IMG/VR virus record: IMGVR_UViG_3300046003_005733
Span: 5,668 to 69,667 of that record
Strand: one strand, 5' to 3'
Origin: a virus
Taxonomy: Duplodnaviria; Caudoviricetes
Length of the DNA: 64,000 nucleotides
The translations under genes and the position numbers were made by a program. This document shows positions 1,558 to 19,347 of the stretch, in pieces (positions within the stretch are counted from its first letter, which is position 1; the number at the start of each line of letters is the position of its first letter). The notes under the pieces were generated by a model. It was not told where the DNA came from and did no database searches. It worked only from the letters and a program-made list of their open reading frames with translations.

Positions 1558-1773
1558 ATGAAAAAACAACAAGTTAGACGCAAAGCATTAAATAAACAAA
1601 AGAAAGTAATGATAACTCCCGGAACAGTAGTTCTAGAGCTTGCATTATGGGAGTTCTCAGGAGATGAGGCTATTATTCGTCACTATGCTAATCAACTTGC
1701 ACAGGCTATATTAACCAGCTATAATCTGAGTAATTTTGGACCAGTAAGTTTTGGCCTAAAAGATGAAGAATAG
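1558..1773 (+). CDS. Hypothetical protein
   Basis: ORF with purine-rich RBS (GAAGG) and upstream TGtGGTATAAC extended -10-like element. Confidence 0.6.
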   Translation: MKKQQVRRKALNKQKKVMITPGTVVLELALWEFSGDEAIIRHYANQLAQAILTSYNLSNFGPVSFGLKDEE

Positions 1774-1862
1774 CCAGTTATAATACGTGACGAATGATTT
1801 TATGAAGTGTAGCTAAGTTTGTGCCGCAGTGACACATCAAAGTACGCTCACAAAGGTAAAAA

Positions 1863-2099
1863 GTGACAGATATGATTAAGTTTAATAAAGATACGTTTTT
1901 AACAATATACTTTTCTGGTTTTAAAGTAGAGACCACTCCATATATTTCTTGTGATATTGCATATTTATGGACTGATGAGGTATTTGACGGTGGAGAAAAT
2001 GGATATGTTTACTTAGTAAGTCCTGAAACTAAGCATAACTATCTTAAGTTTGTTGAAAATATGAAAAAAGAAACTCCACTCCTTCTAGAGCTTACGTAA
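1863..2099 (+). CDS. Small protein with C-terminal tag variant (TPLLLELT*)
   Basis: ORF track; tag-like C-terminus. Confidence 0.6.
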   Translation: MTDMIKFNKDTFLTIYFSGFKVETTPYISCDIAYLWTDEVFDGGENGYVYLVSPETKHNYLKFVENMKKETPLLLELT

Positions 2100-2402
2100 A
2101 TGAAAGATGCCCTAAAAGCACTACGCAGGATTGCACAGATGACCGATCAAAAACATTGGAACTGTACAGAAATGCGTGAAAGAGCATTGGAAGAGTGGAT
2201 AAGTGATTGGTTTATTGAGTTGGAATACGAACAATCAGTACTAAATCAAAAATATTTAAGCTCTGACTTTGAAGATTTTCTAAAAGAACACGTAGGTAAG
2301 AAGTTAGTTGAGAAAGCAATGGAAGATGCTATTGAAATTACTAGCGATAAGAGCAAAATTAAAGGTAGTGTTGTATGTTTGAGGAGAAAGGCAAAAAATT
2401 AA
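2100..2402 (+). CDS. Hypothetical protein
   Basis: ORF abutting previous stop codon. Confidence 0.65.
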   Translation: MKDALKALRRIAQMTDQKHWNCTEMRERALEEWISDWFIELEYEQSVLNQKYLSSDFEDFLKEHVGKKLVEKAMEDAIEITSDKSKIKGSVVCLRRKAKN

Positions 2403-2584
2403 ACTTATTTGAACTAAAACATGGGCAAGTTGTATGGTCAGAACATTTTAAATGCTATGTAATATACACAGGAAAGGATTTTGACGAGGATTTTGTTTTT
2501 GAATACTTACATAAAAAGGGATATTGTATCATACATACATCAGATATATACGATCCTCCCAGCTTACTTAAAGAATTAATATAA
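2375..2584 (+). CDS. Small protein with C-terminal tag (PPSLLKELI*)
   Basis: ORF track; beta-rich body LKHGQVVW..., tag. Confidence 0.7.
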   Translation: MFEEKGKKLNLFELKHGQVVWSEHFKCYVIYTGKDFDEDFVFEYLHKKGYCIIHTSDIYDPPSLLKELI

Positions 2585-2597
2585 CCAGAGGTTACAA

Positions 2598-2954
2598 GTG
2601 ACAGTTAAACTTAAAAGAACACGGAAAAAAAAGCAAGATCTTAAAGGAACCATACATAGTGGGGTACTTTTTATCGGAGATTGTCAATTCTTTGCACAAT
2701 CCCCTGTACTAGAGCTAGACGCTTCCACGGGACAGACTAAAGACATCACTCCAGTAGACCCACTTAACCCCTTTAATACCTTAGATAGAACCTTTGACTT
2801 AGTAGGAGATGGGGAAACCAATGTAGAAGTAGCCCCATATCTTCCGGGTAGAGGGGTTCTAATCAATACCCACATGCAAGGTGGAGCTTTTGTTATAAAA
2901 AAGAGAATAAAAGATGGGAGACTTATTGGATTTACAGTAACAATAAGGGAGTAA
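2598..2954 (+). CDS. Hypothetical protein
   Basis: GTG start with GAGG RBS. Confidence 0.65.
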   Translation: MTVKLKRTRKKKQDLKGTIHSGVLFIGDCQFFAQSPVLELDASTGQTKDITPVDPLNPFNTLDRTFDLVGDGETNVEVAPYLPGRGVLINTHMQGGAFVIKKRIKDGRLIGFTVTIRE

Positions 2955-2955
2955 T

Positions 2956-3135
2956 ATGAATAATAACAAACAGATTAAATTAATTAACTATCTTATTAAT
3001 AATACTGAATGCACAGAAGAATTAGATGATCAAGTTGTTGGAATGTCAGCACAAGAAATAATAGATGTACTTGAGCAAGTATCTGGTATTAGAAAAAACT
3101 TATACTCAAGCTCTCTCGGCAGAGAATTAGGTTGA
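2956..3135 (+). CDS. 59-aa protein with C-terminal tag (SSSLGRELG*)
   Basis: Not in ORF track; AAGGGAG RBS, ATG 2956, MNNNKQIKLINYLINNTEC...LYSSSLGRELG*, stop overlaps next start. Confidence 0.7.
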   Translation: MNNNKQIKLINYLINNTECTEELDDQVVGMSAQEIIDVLEQVSGIRKNLYSSSLGRELG

Positions 3136-3377
3136 GTATAATCAATAACTGGAATACAATATCCACAGAAGAGGCTAGTTTAATCCTATTCCAACGATGT
3201 GTGGAGTTAATGCTTAATAATTCCAGTTATTTAATTACAGCAGATGCTAACATAAGAATACTTACCCAGAGATTATATGGGGATTATAGGCAAGTTGCTA
3301 AAACTCAAGAGTTTAAGAGAGCAGAGAAGCATGTATTTTTCTTTAAGAACACAGGACTTGGAAGGGAGTTATTCTGA
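3132..3377 (+). CDS. Small protein with C-terminal tag (NTGLGRELF*)
   Basis: ORF track; tag. Confidence 0.7.
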   Translation: MSIINNWNTISTEEASLILFQRCVELMLNNSSYLITADANIRILTQRLYGDYRQVAKTQEFKRAEKHVFFFKNTGLGRELF

Positions 3378-3403
3378 AATTTCAAGTAGATAGGAAATAG
3401 TAT

Positions 3404-3601
3404 ATGAAGCTTAATCGCTGGTATAAGGTATGGCACTACCATGGAGAGTACTATGTAAAGCCATATGAACGCTATGGCCCTGCGGCTTTCTTAGTATATA
3501 TCTATGATAAACAAATTTCTAAAATAACTACCACGGTCATATCTAAAGAATACTGTGATAATGTAATGGAATTAAGTAGTTTAGAGCAGGAACTACTGTG
3601 A
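3404..3601 (+). CDS. Small protein with C-terminal tag (ELSSLEQELL*)
   Basis: ORF track; AGGA RBS; tag. Confidence 0.8.
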   Translation: MKLNRWYKVWHYHGEYYVKPYERYGPAAFLVYIYDKQISKITTTVISKEYCDNVMELSSLEQELL

Positions 3602-3843
3602 CGCTAAAGCTTGGTAAGTTATATAAGTTGGGTAATTCCGTATACGACCCATGGGATGAAGTAATCTATACTATTAAAATTGTACAAGAGCCTATGATAT
3701 ACTCACATAACGAATATTACTATAAAGCCCAGATTATTAAAATGGGAGACGACCTACTAAACCAATCATATTTCATGCACTTATACCCAGATGATTGGGA
3801 AATAATAGAAGAACTTAGCAGTTTAGAAGTTGAACTACTATGA
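3598..3843 (+). CDS. Small protein with C-terminal tag (ELSSLEVELL*)
   Basis: ORF track; GTGA overlap; tag. Confidence 0.8.
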   Translation: MTLKLGKLYKLGNSVYDPWDEVIYTIKIVQEPMIYSHNEYYYKAQIIKMGDDLLNQSYFMHLYPDDWEIIEELSSLEVELL

Positions 3844-4073
3844 AAATAGATGTCTGGTATAAAGCTACTTGGTATACTGGTTCTGATAGCACAACAAGCT
3901 TTAAATCTAGTATAATTGTTAAAAGAATCTCTAGTAAGGTTAATACCTATGCCGAGTTTGGAGGATTAGTATCTTACGAAGTTGTAAGGCATCCCGGTTA
4001 TAGACTATCTGGGTTTGTGCCAGATTGCTGGACTATTACTGAACTCAGTAGCTTAGAGCAGGAGTTATTATGA
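3840..4073 (+). CDS. Small protein with C-terminal tag (ELSSLEQELL*)
   Basis: ORF track; ATGA overlap; tag. Confidence 0.8.
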   Translation: MKIDVWYKATWYTGSDSTTSFKSSIIVKRISSKVNTYAEFGGLVSYEVVRHPGYRLSGFVPDCWTITELSSLEQELL

Positions 4074-4270
4074 ATTATAAGATTAAATGGGTAACTGGAG
4101 AAGAATATGCTAAGCTATTAAAAGACTGGCATGAGCGAAGCGTTTTTCCTAGTGGTTACGACATGGACATGTCAAGAGGGTTCAAAGCTATTGTAACGTG
4201 GGATGAGCATAGCAGCCAACCAACGCTTGTGCAAGTAGCTACCTCTGCGTTGATCAAAGAATTATTGTGA
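4070..4270 (+). CDS. Small protein with C-terminal tag (TSALIKELL*)
   Basis: ORF track; ATGA overlap; tag. Confidence 0.75.
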   Translation: MNYKIKWVTGEEYAKLLKDWHERSVFPSGYDMDMSRGFKAIVTWDEHSSQPTLVQVATSALIKELL

Positions 4271-4382
4271 CAGTCTAACTATAAAGTGGGAAATATATTG
4301 TGGAGCATATTCACCTTCAACTCCACACTCTCATCCCCCTCACCCCCCCCCCCCCTAGCCGCACAGCTCAGCCGTCCGTGGC

Positions 4383-4490
4383 TTGGCATCGTTCTTGCAT
4401 GGGCCACTTGGCACCGGCCTTGCATGCACTGGCTTGGCACAGGCCTTGCAGATGCAAAGGTCATGCCTAGTCCTTGGCATGATTATTGCT
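4383..4490. promoter_or_regulatory. Array of five sigma54 (-24/-12) consensus boxes
   Basis: TTGGCATCGTTCTTGCA 4383(+), TTGGCACCGGCCTTGCA 4408(+), TTGGCACAGGCCTTGCA 4434(+), TAGGCATGACCTTTGCA 4453-4469(-), TTGGCATGATTATTGCT 4474(+); all GG-N10-GC. Confidence 0.8.
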
Positions 4491-4491
4491 A

Positions 4492-4713
4492 TTAGATTCC
4501 CATTGGTTTCTCTAGTAGAATGGTCTCGCCTTCCTTGACTCCCTTAGTAGCTCCGTTTAGTGTCTTATAAGTTTTTCGTATCATAACGCCTAGGATGGTA
4601 TTAGTCTTAGTCCAGTGATCTTGTATGACATCCAGTGACCTTGTAGCTACAATGTGATAAACTTCATTCCCTTCCTTACCTTTGTTGTCTGCCTTTGTTT
4701 TAAATCGTACCAT
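4492..4713 (-). CDS. Small basic hypothetical protein, divergent from early genes
   Basis: AAGGGG RBS before ATG; TGG-TATGAT extended -10 upstream. Confidence 0.65.
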   Translation of the reverse strand: MVRFKTKADNKGKEGNEVYHIVATRSLDVIQDHWTKTNTILGVMIRKTYKTLNGATKGVKEGETILLEKPMGI

Positions 4714-4804
4714 TGTTTTCCCCTTGTTTGTTTCTTACCCTCATCATACCATAGGTGTAACGATTCGCAGCAAAGTCAATAATGACGGGGACTTGCAGCA
4801 TAAT

Positions 4805-4881
4805 TTGACACTTTGAATCAAAAATGCTAAGATGAGGACATCAAGGGGAAAGTTGACAGAAACATCGAATGGGTGTAGTAT
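4805..4881 (+). promoter_or_regulatory. Two tandem sigma70-type promoters
   Basis: TTGACA-17-TAAGAT (4805-4833) and TTGACA-17-TAGTAT (4853-4881). Confidence 0.75.
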
Positions 4882-4919
4882 CTTAGTAAGCAAATAACAC
4901 AACGCAACAAGGGGATAAC

Positions 4920-5123
4920 ATGAAGCTTTATAATGTATGCAATGATTTAAGCCTATCACTTACTGAAGACAAGGTTCCGAGAGGGTACAGATGGATTAAG
5001 CAAGACGTGCGGATAAATGATCAGGCAGTGTCGGTCGAGCTTGGGTACTGCACTAAGCACAAAGAGCTTCACTATCTTCGGACAAGCTCTGAAACTGACA
5101 TTGAAGGAGAGAGGCTAAGATAG
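4920..5123 (+). CDS. Early hypothetical protein
   Basis: AAGGGGA RBS, downstream of strong promoters. Confidence 0.7.
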   Translation: MKLYNVCNDLSLSLTEDKVPRGYRWIKQDVRINDQAVSVELGYCTKHKELHYLRTSSETDIEGERLR

Positions 5124-5132
5124 CCTTTTATC

Positions 5133-5429
5133 TTGACACGCTATAGCATACGACAACACAACAAATGGAGCCATATGATTTACTTATTACAAATACTTAG
5201 AATGCTTAACAAGAAACAACAAAGGGAGTTCGTGGCATTGTTTTCAGACCTTGACTATGAGCTGAATGACATGGGATGGAAGGGGGACGAAACTACTCTA
5301 GTCAATGACATGCTTTTCAACCACTTCGGTCTAAGCGTTGAGGATAATGGTCAACTTCAAATGTTAACCGACTGCATTCTAAAGCCCAACATGCTTAAAG
5401 CAGCAGCCACTACAGTCAACATCTTATAA
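5133..5429 (+). CDS. Early hypothetical protein (real start may be the GGAG-preceded ATG near 5175)
   Basis: ORF track; followed by terminator. Confidence 0.6.
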   Translation: MTRYSIRQHNKWSHMIYLLQILRMLNKKQQREFVALFSDLDYELNDMGWKGDETTLVNDMLFNHFGLSVEDNGQLQMLTDCILKPNMLKAAATTVNIL

Positions 5430-5444
5430 CTCTCCAAGTCGCTA

Positions 5445-5468
5445 AGCTCCCTTCGGGGAGTTTTTTTG
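5445..5468 (+). terminator. Intrinsic terminator
   Basis: AGCTCCC-TTCG-GGGAGTT followed by T run. Confidence 0.85.
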
Positions 5469-5470
5469 GC

Positions 5471-5764
5471 TTGGCATGGGGCTTGCAGATGCAATAACTG
5501 TGCCTATTTTTTTAAGCTCGCTCCTTCCCTAATCATGATTACTATTGGGCTTATTTTTCAAGCTCGCCCTTTTGCGCTTGTCTTACCCTCATTGTAGCAA
5601 AAAAGAATTAAGCTGTATATAACGCAAAGATCATGCCAAAACATTTTCTAAGCTGGAATATACGCTGGATGTTGGCTTTGCATAAGCAAAACTCATGCCA
5701 TGTTTCTTTAGGGGGGGGGATCTTCCAATTGGCACATGCTTTGCTAGTGCAATATTGAGGCCTT
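5471..5764. promoter_or_regulatory. Second array of sigma54 consensus boxes (six)
   Basis: TTGGCATGGGGCTTGCA 5471(+), TAGGCACAGTTATTGCA 5490-5506(-), TTGGCATGATCTTTGCG 5623-5639(-), ATGGCATGAGTTTTGCT 5685-5701(-), TTGGCACATGCTTTGCT 5729(+), weaker AAGGCCTCAATATTGCA 5748-5764(-). Confidence 0.75.
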
Positions 5765-6174
5765 ACCAGTTACGAATTTATGAGTAACCGCTTGACAAAT
5801 ATTTATTTCGTTTGGCTATTGCATTATGATGCATAGTGTGAGAATATTGTTTTAAGAGGGGATTAGATGAAAACTTATATTATACTAGTGCTGACATTAA
5901 CCTTAGTAAACTTATTATCACGCTCTGATACTGTTTTAAAGGCTTTTGAGCAGTGATTTAATACACCTTATCAAGCTGACCTAGTAAGCTCAAATCAGGG
6001 CTTCAAAACGTACTGGGGAAGCTTAAACATACCATCCGAGGGGACTGGGCTTGAGCTTGGTCCTCTTTCCAATTTTCAGATACTTACAGGGAATTAATAT
6101 GCGGGCGCAATGAAACTAAGCTGTCTTTATGTGACACCTTGTTTTATGCCTTTACAGGTACTCAATTCATTCCC

Positions 6175-6191
6175 TGCAAAGTCTGTGCCAT
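6175..6191 (-). promoter_or_regulatory. Isolated sigma54 consensus box
   Basis: ATGGCACAGACTTTGCA on minus strand. Confidence 0.65.
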
Positions 6192-6426
6192 ATAGTCTCA
6201 TTTCATCAACCATGGCTAAATTGTCACTGTTTTAAGGGCGTTACGCTCGAAACATAATCCCACGTTTTCGAGTCAAGCTATTTCAGGGGCTTGCGCTGAC
6301 ATGGCTCAAACGCTTTAAAACGTTCAAGGCATGCTTTTTTTCACGTTCCCAATTAATGCCAGTGCGAGGGCTTATCCTCATAATGTAAGGGGGTTTATAT
6401 AAAAGTTAAGAGATGTCACTTTATTA

Positions 6427-6455
6427 TTGACGCATTATTTCTTTTCCTGTAGAAT
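6427..6455 (+). promoter_or_regulatory. sigma70-type early promoter containing TGACGCA
   Basis: TTGACG-17-TAGAAT; first 19 bp identical to promoter at 8110. Confidence 0.75.
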
Positions 6456-6490
6456 CTTACTAAGGAAGCAAACAACAAAGAGGGCAACAT

Positions 6491-6676
6491 ATGAAAGATT
6501 TATTAAATAAAGTTGAAATGATTGAAAAGAAAATGGATATTTATGTTGAATTTTACGGATGGTCAAGCGATGAGACTAAAGCCTTAAAAGATCAATTAGA
6601 TCAACTTAATTCAGCTATTATTGAGTTAATGTTATTAGATCAAGAAATAACTAGAATTAAATCATTTGTAGCATAA
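6491..6676 (+). CDS. Early coiled-coil hypothetical protein
   Basis: AGAGGG RBS; ORF track. Confidence 0.7.
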   Translation: MKDLLNKVEMIEKKMDIYVEFYGWSSDETKALKDQLDQLNSAIIELMLLDQEITRIKSFVA

Positions 6677-6838
6677 AAGGGGACAAAATGAGCATAAAAT
6701 TTAAAATCGGTATGGTTCAAGATGGAAAAACGGCAATTTATGAAAGATCATTCAGTAAACGAAGCCTTAAGTTATTCAATGACAAATATCATTGGGGCTT
6801 TAATACTAGAGTTTTAATTTTAATAAAAGGGGAATAAT

Positions 6839-7335: not shown

Positions 7336-8067
7336 ATGTCAATTTGCTTAACTCAAACGTCTCACATTGGCTCTAATAAATTCGGGTTTATCTCAAGTGA
7401 AAGTCTAGTAAAAAATCTTGAAAATAAGGGATTTAAATTGTCTGATGTTGTGGAGTCTAAAATTAGAAAGGATAAGGAAAAACGCCTAGGCTTCCAAAAA
7501 CATGTTTTGCGCTTTGATGTTGGCTATTCAAATAGTCAAGGGAAACTTCAACTATTAGCTATTAATTCTCACGAAGGTTCAAGCGCGTTGACTTTCCGAC
7601 TAGGCTTTTTTCGAATGGTTTGTTCCAATGGTTTGATAGTGGGGAGTGACTTAATTCCTAAAATTAAAGTAAGGCATACCCAAAATGGGCTTTTAAAGCT
7701 TGACGATTCAATCGAGGAAATGATGGACTATAGGACTGTAGCAATCGATGGAATTAATGCAATGAGCAATAAAATTTTGACTAGTGACGAAATTAAAGCC
7801 TTGCAAGATTCATGCCTAAAATTGAGAATGGGGGATAAATATTCTGATAAACTTATCCCTCTTTTTGAAGCGAAGCGGTGGGAAGATAAAAGAGAAGATT
7901 TATTTAGCCAATTTAATATCATTCAAGAAAATTTGATGAGAACGGGCTTTTATGTACAGGATGAGGATAAGAATAAGACTAGTAAAGTAAGAGCGATAAA
8001 AGGCGTTGACGCTAATATCCTTTTAAATACTAGTATCTACAACGAAGCTTTGAAGCTTATCGCATAA
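7336..8067 (+). CDS. DUF932/DUF945 family protein
   Basis: FQKHVLRF, INSHEGSSA, GFFRMVCSNGL, FNIIQENL motifs. Confidence 0.85.
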   Translation: MSICLTQTSHIGSNKFGFISSESLVKNLENKGFKLSDVVESKIRKDKEKRLGFQKHVLRFDVGYSNSQGKLQLLAINSHEGSSALTFRLGFFRMVCSNGLIVGSDLIPKIKVRHTQNGLLKLDDSIEEMMDYRTVAIDGINAMSNKILTSDEIKALQDSCLKLRMGDKYSDKLIPLFEAKRWEDKREDLFSQFNIIQENLMRTGFYVQDEDKNKTSKVRAIKGVDANILLNTSIYNEALKLIA

Positions 8068-17490: not shown

Positions 17491-19347
17491 ATGGACAAAA
17501 GTGTTAAGATTATGTCAGATATTACAGTATTTTCTAAGTATGCTAAATTTGATAAAAGCAAAAACAGAAGAGAGACTTGGGAAGAAATTTGTCTAAGAAA
17601 TAGAGACATGCATTTAAAAAAATATCCTCAACTAGATTCTGAAATTATTAATTTATATAATGACTTTGTAATTCCTAAAAAGATCCTACCATCTATGCGC
17701 TCTATGCAGTTTGCAGGAAAGCCTATTGAAGTTAGTCCTAATAGAATATTTAACTGTGCTTATGCCCCTGCAGATAACTATAAGATCTTTTCTGAAGCCA
17801 TGTTTCTTTTACTAGGAGGTACTGGCTTAGGTTATTCTGTTCAAAAGCATCATGTAGATCATATAGGTGAAGTATTAAAGCCGGGAAGAGCAAGAAGATT
17901 TTTAATTGAAGATTCCATTCAAGGATGGGCTAATGCAATTAAAAAACTCATGGAAGCTTATTTTCATGGGAAATCATTTCCTTTATTTGATTTTTCTGAT
18001 ATTCGTGCAAAAGGAGAGGAACTCGTAACTAGTGGAGGCAAAGCCCCCGGAGCTGAACCATTAAAGACTTGCCTATTTAATCTGCAAAGAATATTGGATA
18101 GAAAAAGTATTGGGGATAAGCTATCTACATTAGAAGTACATGACATGCTATGCTTCATTGCAGATGCAGTACTTTCTGGTGGAATTAGACGAGCCGCTTT
18201 GATATGCCTATTTGATATTGATGACAATGAAATGCTAACATGTAAATTTGGTAACTGGTGGGAATTAAATCCTCAGAGAGGACGAGCAAATAACTCGGCT
18301 GTAGTAATTAGACATAAGGTTACTAAAGATAAATTTATGGAATTATGGTCTAAAATTAAAGCCTCTGGATCTGGTGAGCCGGGATTATACTTTAGCAATA
18401 ATGCAGATTGGGGAACTAATCCATGCTGTGAAATTGCATTAAGACCATTCCAATTTTGTAACTTGACGGAAATTAATGGAAGTGATATAGTGAGTCAAGG
18501 GGATTTAGAAGATAGATCTAGAGCCGCAGCATTTCTCGGCACTCTCCAAGCGGGATATACAGATTTTCACTATCTTAGAGATATTTGGAAAAAGACAACA
18601 GAAAAAGACTCGCTAATAGGAGTTGGAATTACAGGAATTGCTTCAGGTAATATCCTAAATCTTAATTTAGAATCTGCTTCTAATATTGTAAAACAGGAGA
18701 ATGAACGTGTTGCTACCATTATTGGGATTAACGTGGCTGCTAGGACAACTTGTATTAAACCATCAGGGACCACTTCCTTGGTTGTTGGGTCTAGTTCTGG
18801 TATTCATGCTTGGCATAGTGAGTATTATATTCGTAATATACGATTTGGTAAAAACGAAACAATCTACAAATTCCTAGCTAAAAATCATCCTGAGATTGTT
18901 CAAGATGAATTCTTTAAACCTATGGAGCAAGCTGTTATAGGGATTCCTGTTAAAGCTCCTCAAACTGCTATTTTTAGAACTGAGAGTGCAATTCAGCTAT
19001 TGGAGAGAATTAAAAAGTTCTCGTCAGAGTGGGTTAAAGTTGGGCATAGAAAAGGTGATAATACTCACAATGTTTCGGCTACTATATCTGTAGGTGATAC
19101 TGAATGGGATAATGTGGCAGAATGGATGTGGGACAATAGGGATTGTTATAATGGACTTTCTGTGCTTCCTAGAAATGATCATTCGTATCAGCAACCACCG
19201 TTTGAGGAGTGTTCAAAGGAAAGATTTGATAGTTTATACGCTACATTAAAAAATATTGATTTGACAAAAGTAATTGAACAAGAAGATAATACAGATCTAA
19301 GTGCTGAAGCTGCTTGTGCAGGCGGGGCTTGTGAAGTAAATTTTTAA
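17491..19347 (+). CDS. nrdJ: Class II (B12-dependent) ribonucleotide reductase
   Basis: FNC, GTNPCCEI, FCNLTE, TTCIKPSGT, C-terminal ACAGGACEV; no beta-subunit gene nearby. Confidence 0.85.
   Translation: MDKSVKIMSDITVFSKYAKFDKSKNRRETWEEICLRNRDMHLKKYPQLDSEIINLYNDFVIPKKILPSMRSMQFAGKPIEVSPNRIFNCAYAPADNYKIFSEAMFLLLGGTGLGYSVQKHHVDHIGEVLKPGRARRFLIEDSIQGWANAIKKLMEAYFHGKSFPLFDFSDIRAKGEELVTSGGKAPGAEPLKTCLFNLQRILDRKSIGDKLSTLEVHDMLCFIADAVLSGGIRRAALICLFDIDDNEMLTCKFGNWWELNPQRGRANNSAVVIRHKVTKDKFMELWSKIKASGSGEPGLYFSNNADWGTNPCCEIALRPFQFCNLTEINGSDIVSQGDLEDRSRAAAFLGTLQAGYTDFHYLRDIWKKTTEKDSLIGVGITGIASGNILNLNLESASNIVKQENERVATIIGINVAARTTCIKPSGTTSLVVGSSSGIHAWHSEYYIRNIRFGKNETIYKFLAKNHPEIVQDEFFKPMEQAVIGIPVKAPQTAIFRTESAIQLLERIKKFSSEWVKVGHRKGDNTHNVSATISVGDTEWDNVAEWMWDNRDCYNGLSVLPRNDHSYQQPPFEECSKERFDSLYATLKNIDLTKVIEQEDNTDLSAEAACAGGACEVNF

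Follow-up and report, generated by a model that had tools for sequence, protein, structure and literature searches.

Alone among bacterial sigma factors, sigma-54 binds DNA and then waits for an ATP-driven activator, and its sites follow the extended consensus YTGGCACGr-N3-TTGCW. Phage use of this factor is documented, as far as found in the literature, for a single Pseudomonas phage group, and work on phage YuA reportedly describes a few single sigma-54 promoters ahead of late genes. YuA depends on sigma-70 as well as sigma-54 (Ceyssens et al. 2008, as cited in PMC10914365). Lists of bacterial sites from Salmonella and Escherichia coli agree with the extended consensus (PMC3844500, PMC4591121). 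Here we describe twelve sigma-54-like boxes in a tailed-phage genome from lake-water metagenomes, IMG/VR record IMGVR_UViG_3300046003_005733 (G000; 69,667 bases, estimated completeness 83%). We analysed bases 5668-69667 of this record, a stretch of 64,000 nucleotides referred to below as the window, whose own numbering is used throughout. From their sequence, the boxes are probably docking sites of host sigma-54 RNA polymerase. Our favoured reading of their function, to which we give a probability of about 0.45, is that they are activator-gated promoters without an enhancer of their own, several of them built as compact bidirectional units.

The boxes were defined by the strict pattern TGGCAY-N5-TTGCW, and matches with up to one mismatch were also counted. 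Eight of the twelve are exact, three have one mismatch and one has two, and the GG-N10-GC spacing is kept in 12/12. Five of them, at 4384-4490, make up cluster A, and the other seven, at 5472-6190, make up cluster B, which is looser; box-to-box offsets are 18-26 bp in the dense parts. Cluster A opens with three exact plus-strand boxes: box 1 at 4384..4399 (TGGCATCGTTCTTGCA, identical in a close relative at L010:57), box 2 at 4409..4424, 25 bp past the first, and box 3 at 4435..4450. The third is the plus half of a palindromic unit, 4435-4468, whose minus half is box 4 at 4453..4468 (AGGCAT...TTGCA, one mismatch); box 5 at 4475..4490, exact and again on the plus strand, adjoins the stop of a minus-strand gene at 4492-4713. 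Cluster B begins 9 bases past a terminator (5444-5463) with the exact plus-strand box 6 at 5472..5487, which forms a second palindromic unit, 5472-5505, with the minus-strand box 7 at 5490..5505 (AGGCAC...TTGCA, one mismatch). Two further minus-strand boxes follow: box 8 at 5623..5638 (TGGCAT...TTGCG, one mismatch), 4 bp upstream of the -35 element of a minus-strand promoter at 5619-5591, and the exact box 9 at 5685..5700. Box 10 at 5730..5745 (plus, exact) lies about 120 nt upstream of a 29-codon frame at ~5865; box 11 at 5748..5763 (minus, AGGCCT...TTGCA, two mismatches) is the weakest of the set; and box 12 at 6175..6190 (minus, exact) has no minus-strand gene downstream.

A first-pass annotation of this DNA had already listed twelve such sites. 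All were found where it placed them, with the GG-N10-GC spacing intact; the sites were right, and the numbering, which counts from the T preceding TGG, was one base early. Its three head-to-head pairs, TTGCAGATGCAA at 4446 and 5483 and TTGCTAGTGCAA at 5741, are all present. It had called the stretch non-coding: small genes do occur within it, and the boxes lie between those genes.

The clustering is far from what composition predicts. Across the 69,667 bases of the record, all eight exact matches (8/8) fall within 1.8 kb, at window 4384-6190, and the reversed pattern has no match in the record; given one exact site, the chance that seven more fall within the same 1807 of 69,667 bases is arithmetically about 8e-12. 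With up to one mismatch the window contains 20 matches, of which 11 fall in 4384-6190; 100 dinucleotide shuffles give 3.82 +/- 2.19 (maximum 10). The genome-wide clustering test that the annotation had proposed thus finds the sites concentrated at 4384-6190, far above shuffled sequence; its remark that no such sites were noticed by eye elsewhere in the window holds record-wide for exact sites and does not hold for one-mismatch sites, nine of which lie elsewhere in the window. The flanks also show preferences: T stands before the box in 9/12, and G or A follows TGGCAY in 9/12. By our own count, the strict pattern fits 8 of the 12 window boxes against 10 of the 29 intergenic Salmonella sites listed in PMC3844500. 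A one-mismatch box (AGGCATGAATCTTGCA) at 7802-7817 on the minus strand lies antisense within a DUF932 gene (7336-8067) and is also present in the close relative (L010:3681); it may be a chance match preserved by coding constraint.

Comparison with relatives, which the annotation had likewise proposed, shows the boxes kept in a relative that is 96% identical (G001; 81,765 bases, 97% complete) and present at the same place in a more distant one (G002; 75% identity in a neighbouring protein). G001 retains all boxes and has one perfect extra, at L010:629, within a gene that G000 lacks. Between G000 and G001, 0 of 121 specified positions vary as against 5 of 55 spacer positions (Fisher p 0.0026): G001 has rewritten the spacers of the minus-strand boxes at 4453 (GACCT to GTCTC) and 5490 (AGTTA to AGCTC), with both half-sites intact in each. 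DNA contigs from an independent run (X24) carry spacer changes at 4458, 4459 and 4461 in box 4 and at 5495 and 5497 in box 7; among the 40 population variants listed (62 more exist), all five inside boxes are N5 spacer positions. A natural variant in X24 has 12 letters instead of 5745-5789, with loss of the two-mismatch box 11 and retention of the exact box 10. In G002, four exact boxes stand at the matching place past that genome's own C-rich tract, in flanking DNA that is no longer alignable; they include a head-to-head pair with a different gap, and the apparent counterpart of box 12 reads TTGAA for TTGCA (by eye). The exact box is absent from the fetched loci of twelve farther relatives (32-47% in the neighbouring protein). 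In a second array family, the L145 group of five loci, variation touches 7 of the 99 specified positions and 37 of the 113 remaining ones (p 2.8e-6). The best explanation of these patterns would be that selection keeps the boxes at the head of the early region.

Around the boxes, gene content has been exchanged. Between cluster A and a conserved gene at 5175-5429, the segment 4492-5130 is swapped relative to L010:170-1010. In G000 it holds a minus-strand gene of 73 aa and a plus-strand gene of 67 aa; in G001 the 73-aa gene is missing and two other genes stand instead, one with a HELCH (HExxH-like) motif seen by eye. The extra perfect box at L010:629 lies inside this HELCH-motif gene.

Similar arrays recur in other viral contigs. 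A viral collection was scanned for two exact boxes 5-30 bases apart and yielded at least 120 stretches; the true number is therefore larger, and the sample consists of the loci met first. As a control, the pattern read backwards and made slightly looser gave 12 stretches, and none of these 12 control loci contains a box. All 120 listed loci were used for box counts, flank composition, neighbour spacing, the sigma-70 rule discussed below and clustering, and the first 80 for the control-locus check, head-to-head and back-to-back offsets, gene order in the terminase clade, orientation counts and helical phase. Many of the listed loci are related, so that orientation and spacing counts are not independent, and gene calls there are crude. 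The 120 loci range from 0.31 to 0.64 in G+C and form at least 88 clusters at 80% nucleotide identity; at least three exact boxes within 300 bp occur in 78 and at least four in 39, with a maximum of nine. In 516 distinct clustered boxes from these loci we scored the flank positions left free by the search pattern: T precedes TGG in 66%, G (72%) or A (26%) follows TGGCAY, and the next base is a purine in 75%. The earlier identification of the repeats as sigma-54 -24/-12 elements is thus supported both by the conservation of specified positions and by flanks that follow the extended consensus. That phages so unlike in composition share a single motif points toward a universal host factor, and it is the -24/-12 geometry, the flank preferences, the selection on contact positions and the recurrence across varied phages that together argue for sigma-54 as the reader.

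The same evidence bears on the view that the boxes are a functionless repeat family resembling the motif by chance, which we consider very improbable. Any short unit can spread by tandem duplication. Yet the spacers and flanks of the twelve boxes differ, as the annotation had noted in seeing the spacer vary while both boxes were kept, and the boxes are therefore not copies of one repeat; in addition, specified positions are conserved relative to spacers, and the reversed controls stay at 0 in the record and at 12 versus at least 120 stretches in the viral collection.

Bacterial genomes, a far larger collection, gave at least 120 loci with the tandem pattern, and among the first 80 of them 63 have just two boxes and 6 have four or more. 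The taxa include phyla that are not known to have sigma-54, and most of these matches are likely chance in a much larger collection. Isolated phages gave no DNA match to the box region or to another array. The nearest isolated-phage terminase (29%) belongs to a Silvanigrella aquatica phage record with a single exact box and without an array; each of five HMO-2011-type records, which have portals 21-26% identical to those of the array clade described below, contains 0-1 exact box; and no cultured relative with an array was found.

The arrays are tightly and regularly tiled. Among the 120 listed loci, same-strand neighbours lie 25-29 bp apart in 116 of 228 distinct pairs and 30-34 bp apart in 9; in the first 80 loci, boxes set head to head are offset by 17-21 bp and those set back to back by 21-26 bp. 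The 25-29 bp peak corresponds to about 2.5 helical turns (mean phase 0.56 turn); past this peak the mean phase is equal and phasing is not significant (n = 70, p = 0.1). Copy number runs from 2 to ~28, with recent tandem duplication in L118, L114 and L179, and L118 carries four identical 28-bp repeats. The densest array seen, L179:5660-6450 in a 147,530-base viral contig, has ~28 boxes, exact or with one mismatch, in 800 bases arranged as opposed blocks. Box pairs recur over several kb in L178 and L186. L178:1990-5640 consists of five repeats of a module: an A-rich stretch, two tandem boxes and a conserved segment with two CTGCCATTTTGGCAG palindromes, followed each time by the apparent terminator of the preceding minus-strand unit. 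The conserved segment may be an enhancer-like or leader element tied to the boxes. In a few arrays, back-to-back boxes form hairpins (by eye), for which mimicry of CsrA-binding loops is an idea only.

Many of the arrays share a neighbourhood. A large terminase of the window phage's or of L114's family is encoded in 48 of the 120 listed loci, and the 15/15 displayed loci of this clade share one arrangement: portal, then terminase, an M15-type peptidase, a basic protein of 128 aa with RGRP motifs and, on the other strand, the boxes. In 15/15, too, the boxes closest to the packaging operon face small early genes and have that operon behind them. The position of the 128-aa RGRP protein makes it the probable small terminase. 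The clade arrays inspected by sequence have a G/C-rich tract, a feature of many cos sites, at the box edge between the 128-aa gene and the array. Owing to this neighbourhood, small terminase is the main rival reader: the boxes could be sites of a phage protein (small terminase at pac or cos, a replication initiator or a partition protein) that merely resemble sigma-54 sites. Such a protein would suit arrays that adjoin the upstream side of the probable small-terminase gene, with a G/C-rich tract between, as well as the many contigs that break at or within arrays. We hold this to be improbable on several grounds. Between the window array and the terminase gene lie ~5.7-7.5 kb of DNA, in which the late operon starts and eleven small plus-strand genes (1558-4270) separate that operon from the C-tract and cluster A. 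Boxes are dispersed over 0.7 kb in cluster B and over several kb in L178 and L186. The motif with its flanks occurs in at least 88 clusters, 63 of 88 without a terminase-family match within the locus, and phage DNA-binding proteins would seldom preserve a single site over so broad a spectrum. Assemblies are expected to break artefactually at repeats and homopolymers: the contig ends of G001 overlap by ~112 bases just past the poly-C tract, which marks a circular assembly broken at a homopolymer, and in long contigs the arrays are internal. The same two facts leave unsupported the annotation's suggestion of an anchor near the first-injected genome end.

Two more specific candidates were considered. 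The window array as a pac- or cosB-type site beside a small-terminase gene is at odds with a large terminase at least 5.7 kb from the first box. An iteron-type origin fits poorly with a region whose G+C climbs to 0.418 (4001-6000) against ~0.30-0.40 elsewhere in the window, with helicase, primase and polymerase genes 17-20 kb away and with repeats in both orientations.

As to the polymerase, we found no Sigma54_DBD domain in five phage records, no Sigma70_r2 in the 97%-complete relative G001 and no T7-type polymerase (RNA_pol, PF00940), the last a weak blank in that its control matched nowhere. With no sigma-54, sigma-70-family factor or T7-type enzyme detected, the phage, as far as detectable, relies on host polymerase. 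The identity of the host is hinted at by two genes: the ribonucleotide reductase (17491-19347) is 56-60% identical to enzymes of Cytophagales and other Bacteroidota (Cytophagales in 80/80 kept loci), and the nearest DNA polymerase is that of a Flavobacterium phage, at 44%. Nearly every gene has a strong Shine-Dalgarno sequence, and the early promoters are TTGACA/TATAAT-like, both of which are unusual in Bacteroidota; since gene starts and promoters do not look Bacteroidota-like, we do not take the Cytophagales hint as a host call. Phage contigs binned in metagenome-assembled genomes (L266 in Sphingobacteriales, L341 in Anaerolinea, L323 in Bathyarchaeota) were rejected as unreliable for this purpose.

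In the favoured reading, that of activator-gated promoters, each box would take up one holoenzyme, and the resulting closed complex would remain inactive pending its remodelling by an AAA+ enhancer-binding activator. With no phage activator or enhancer detectable, the boxes would have to be fired by whatever host activator happens to be active and able to work from solution. Any closed complex is a target for activators that lack a DNA-binding domain; when an activator works from solution, its effect is ~10-fold weaker (PMC3844500), a loss that multiplied near-perfect sites would offset. Near-consensus boxes, in tandem at 25-26 bp or as palindromes, would raise occupancy and improve the odds of inefficient activation. 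The outcome would be conditional transcription both ways: rightward transcripts would run with the small early genes behind leaders of ~110-450 nt, and leftward transcripts would be antisense or non-coding RNAs. For sigma-54 promoters of E. coli, leaders of 360-760 nt and antisense orientation have been described (PMC4591121). Silent complexes that abut a sigma-70 promoter (box 5623-5638, with the -35 at 5619) would compete with it; the box ends 4 bp from that -35, so that holoenzyme competition is plausible under any model. What we infer is that sigma-54 binds, that the boxes fire, where the activator comes from and what the transcripts do.

Geometry permits promoters in both orientations. 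The head-to-head pairs had been dismissed by the annotation on the ground that they cannot work as ordinary promoters, and here it was wrong: with starts predicted ~12 nt past the GC, the plus-strand box at 4435 would fire rightward from near 4461 and the minus-strand box at 4453 leftward from near 4442. The predicted starts diverge, giving transcripts that do not overlap, and each palindrome would therefore serve as a compact promoter in both directions, at which the two complexes are probably mutually exclusive. Among arrays with one orientation dominant, the next gene runs in the same direction in 25 cases and in the opposite direction in 11, on crude gene calls. In the window phage, its relative and some further examples, the array is followed by a sigma-70-like promoter of matching direction.

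Several observations weigh against activator-gated promoters. The general rule of a sigma-70-like promoter after the array, in the same direction, holds in only 9 of 75 loci and was rejected. No Sigma54_activat domain scored over the cut-off in the record, the best being an 11.2-bit match to a ClpX/AAA_2-like protein, and none was found in five other array-bearing records. The annotation, too, had seen no enhancer-binding AAA+ activator, and the domain search of the record is likewise blank; the window's two AAA+ proteins are MoxR/AAA_5-like and ClpX/AAA_2-like. No enhancer-like element was recognised, and no RNA run containing the phage (window 3500-9500) was found. Six of the twelve boxes face left, where no gene bearing a ribosome-binding site is visible, and every plus-strand gene of the region already has its own sigma-70-like promoter. 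Tiling at 25-29 bp permits at most one open complex at once, and ~28 boxes in 800 bp (L179) or four 28-bp repeats (L118) look more like binding-site dosage than promoters. The orientation count is crude, 23 arrays having been left out of it in which a long frame spans the array, and it draws on related phages that are not independent. Taken together, tiling and copy-number expansions fit a binding array at least as well.

These last points lead to the silent sink, or decoy, that the annotation had put forward. Sigma-54 or its holoenzyme would gather on the boxes in closed complexes, none of which would ever fire; the sites, multiplying with genome replication, would outnumber scarce sigma-54 and shut the host sigma-54 regulon or shift sigma competition. 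We consider it rather unlikely, and give the same weight to its particular form, in which the arrays are not ordinary promoters and instead trap host sigma-54 holoenzyme, with complexes stacked on alternate helix faces or polymerase held beside early promoters. A decoy is nonetheless a live rival, one that fits the site quality, tight tiling and copy-number expansions seen in other phages. Near-perfect boxes, tiled as densely as possible (116/228 pairs at 25-29 bp, phase 0.56 turn, which would place neighbours on opposite faces) and expanded from 2 to ~28 copies by recent tandem duplication (L118, L114, L179), are in keeping with a sink, as are a phage in which no activator was detected and a window in which half of the boxes serve no visible gene. 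Most sigma-54 sites of E. coli are bound yet inactive (PMC4591121). Orientation, irrelevant to a sink, is nevertheless ordered, being tandem or strictly alternating and directed away from the packaging operon in 15/15 displayed loci, an order for which shared ancestry could account. A sink would not need a fixed place at the head of the early region; a held holoenzyme also removes core polymerase that is needed at the phage's own sigma-70 promoters; and spacing of 26-29 bp is equally expected of head-to-tail copies of a whole -26..+1 promoter unit.

Alternatively, stacked closed complexes could act as a roadblock or insulator that stops read-through between packed, opposed early units. Its setting is suggestive at cluster A, where a plus-strand operon (ending at 4270) meets the minus-strand gene 4713-4492, at the unit 5472-5505, which follows a terminator, and in L178, where the tandem boxes stand between a minus-strand unit's terminator and the apparent next -35, facing incoming polymerase (by eye). 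We think this improbable to a higher degree than binding by a phage protein. In E. coli, intragenic bound sites had no effect on overlapping genes and the authors exclude roadblock repression (PMC4591121); terminase-clade arrays lie in divergent regions with no incoming transcription; and ordinary terminators are available and used nearby.

Cluster A sits between the 3' ends of the plus-strand operon (ending at 4270) and of the 73-codon minus-strand gene, which lies convergent with it at 4492..4713, has a strong Shine-Dalgarno sequence and belongs to no family; this gene is deleted in G001, and a different 36-codon frame takes its place in G002. On the plus strand, a small gene of 67 aa (4920..5123) and another at 5175..5429 have strong ribosome-binding sites, the second followed by the intrinsic terminator at 5444..5463 (plus), and the 29-codon frame occupies ~5865-5954. 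The annotation had credited neighbouring genes with sigma-70 promoters of their own, and sigma-70-like promoters are indeed present: two on the plus strand at 4805-4833 (TTGACA-17-TAAGAT) and 4853-4881 (TTGACA-17-TAGTAT), preceding gene 4920-5123, a third at 6427-6455 (plus), and one on the minus strand at 5591..5619 (TATACA-17-TACAAT with TG), which has no protein gene downstream. By eye, -10-like hexamers on the minus strand (TATGAT and TACAAT, at 4735-4750 and 5578-5592) are each followed by an identical GAGGGTAAGA start region. The hexamer at 5578-5592 has no protein-coding gene in its path; it may give rise to a small RNA, ~100 nt long, whose end would lie near 5480. No Rfam family reached threshold in 3800-6800, the best being BjrC68 at 17.7 bits against the 39 needed. 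The ~460 bases at 5960-6420 hold box 6175 (minus) and no convincing gene, and they are conserved in G001 and partly in G002; here again no Rfam family reached threshold.

Homopolymers and conserved non-coding DNA border the array. Immediately upstream of cluster A lies a C-rich tract (C5 TCA C13; 4335..4355, plus), whose length differs among relatives and runs. Its C13 run (4343-4355) is C14 and C19 at the two contig ends of G001, the C19 partly preceded by a further C-rich stretch, and C9 in G002; contigs of several other runs break at the C run (4351-4355), as expected of a homopolymer. A G9 run at 5711-5719 is G5 in G001 and 3-4 G shorter in run X24. C- or G-rich tracts flank arrays in further viral loci (L114, L122, L153, L140/L145, L184), and rut-like or cos-like roles were considered for them. 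The non-coding block 4258-4338, from the stop of gene 4070-4270 to the C-tract, is 83% identical to G002 over 81 bases; its conservation amid diverged non-coding neighbours suggests a conserved signal of its own.

At the scale of the genome, rightward genes run from 1558 to ~41,800 and include an ATPase, ribonucleotide reductase, exonuclease, helicase, primase and a family A DNA polymerase. Leftward genes run from 64,000 to 41,900 and again from 1519 into the record's first 5.7 kb, where the large terminase (L229:2905-4389) and the portal (L229:681-2840) are encoded. Among ten large late proteins, most are without family: 8/10 have no PHROGs match and 7/10 no Pfam match, and the Pfam matches of the other 3/10 are weak or unrelated. 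In the virion module (42167-64000, minus), an internal-virion-protein segment lies inside a 1530-aa protein, and an SU10-adaptor match is weak, at 20.2 bits under the cut-off; these hints would point to a podovirus-like particle.

What the arrays mean depends on whether they fire. If they do, many uncultivated phages would tie part of their programme to host physiology through whichever activator is active, by means of a promoter architecture (enhancer-less, tiled and palindromic) that we have not found described. If they are silent, they would be a natural DNA sink for a sigma factor. Should the trap be true, it would be the first natural DNA decoy for a sigma factor and a widespread class of cis-element, present in at least 88 clusters of aquatic and other uncultivated phages, typically at the junction of packaging operon and early genes, and it would switch off host programmes for nitrogen, motility, pili, envelope stress and RNA repair. 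The element is short and portable; it could serve as a signature for the early-region boundary in unfamiliar phage genomes and for rpoN in the host. Sigma-54 sites in a phage are known; what is new, in that we did not find it in print, is the architecture and its breadth. The literature searched, which did not extend to subscription journals and supplementary files, contains no sigma-54 box arrays in phages, clustered or tiled, and no DNA decoy for a sigma factor.

Several known systems offer partial likenesses. Lambda cosB and SPP1 pac are terminase recognition sites with repeated elements; like them, the window has short repeats beside a G/C-rich tract, and in the related clade these stand beside the probable small-terminase gene. 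The window motif differs in being the universal sigma-54 consensus, in lying kilobases from the terminase genes and in occurring dispersed as well. Phage T7 has tandem early sigma-70 promoters, A1, A2 and A3, ~100 bp apart, which fire unaided. The likeness here would be that several strong promoters for the host polymerase face one way where the early region begins, and the difference that the sigma-54 boxes are 25-26 bp apart and need an activator.

Titration is also precedented. The datA locus titrates DnaA, and 6S RNA traps sigma-70 holoenzyme as RNA, not DNA; we know of no natural sigma-factor decoy made of DNA. Decoy transcription-factor sites have been treated as titration arrays (PMC8599769, 10.1101/2020.05.05.079665), and the window resembles these in that a scarce DNA-binding factor could be drawn out of its free pool by clustered sites of high affinity.

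The nearest comparisons are those with YuA and with bacterial chromosomes. YuA is likewise a virulent phage without an RNA polymerase of its own that has host sigma-54 sites besides sigma-70 promoters, and there rpoN dependence has been shown. The window phage departs from it in having twelve boxes, in two clusters, in the early region and in both orientations, with palindromes and with half of the boxes lacking a gene. In E. coli and Salmonella, holoenzyme sits on -24/-12 sites without transcribing, many of them far from or antisense to genes, and long leaders and competition with overlapping sigma-70 promoters are described (PMC4591121, PMC3844500). The chromosomal sites in those accounts are single, scattered and often imperfect, whereas 8 of the 12 in the window are exact and the boxes stand 18-26 bp apart.

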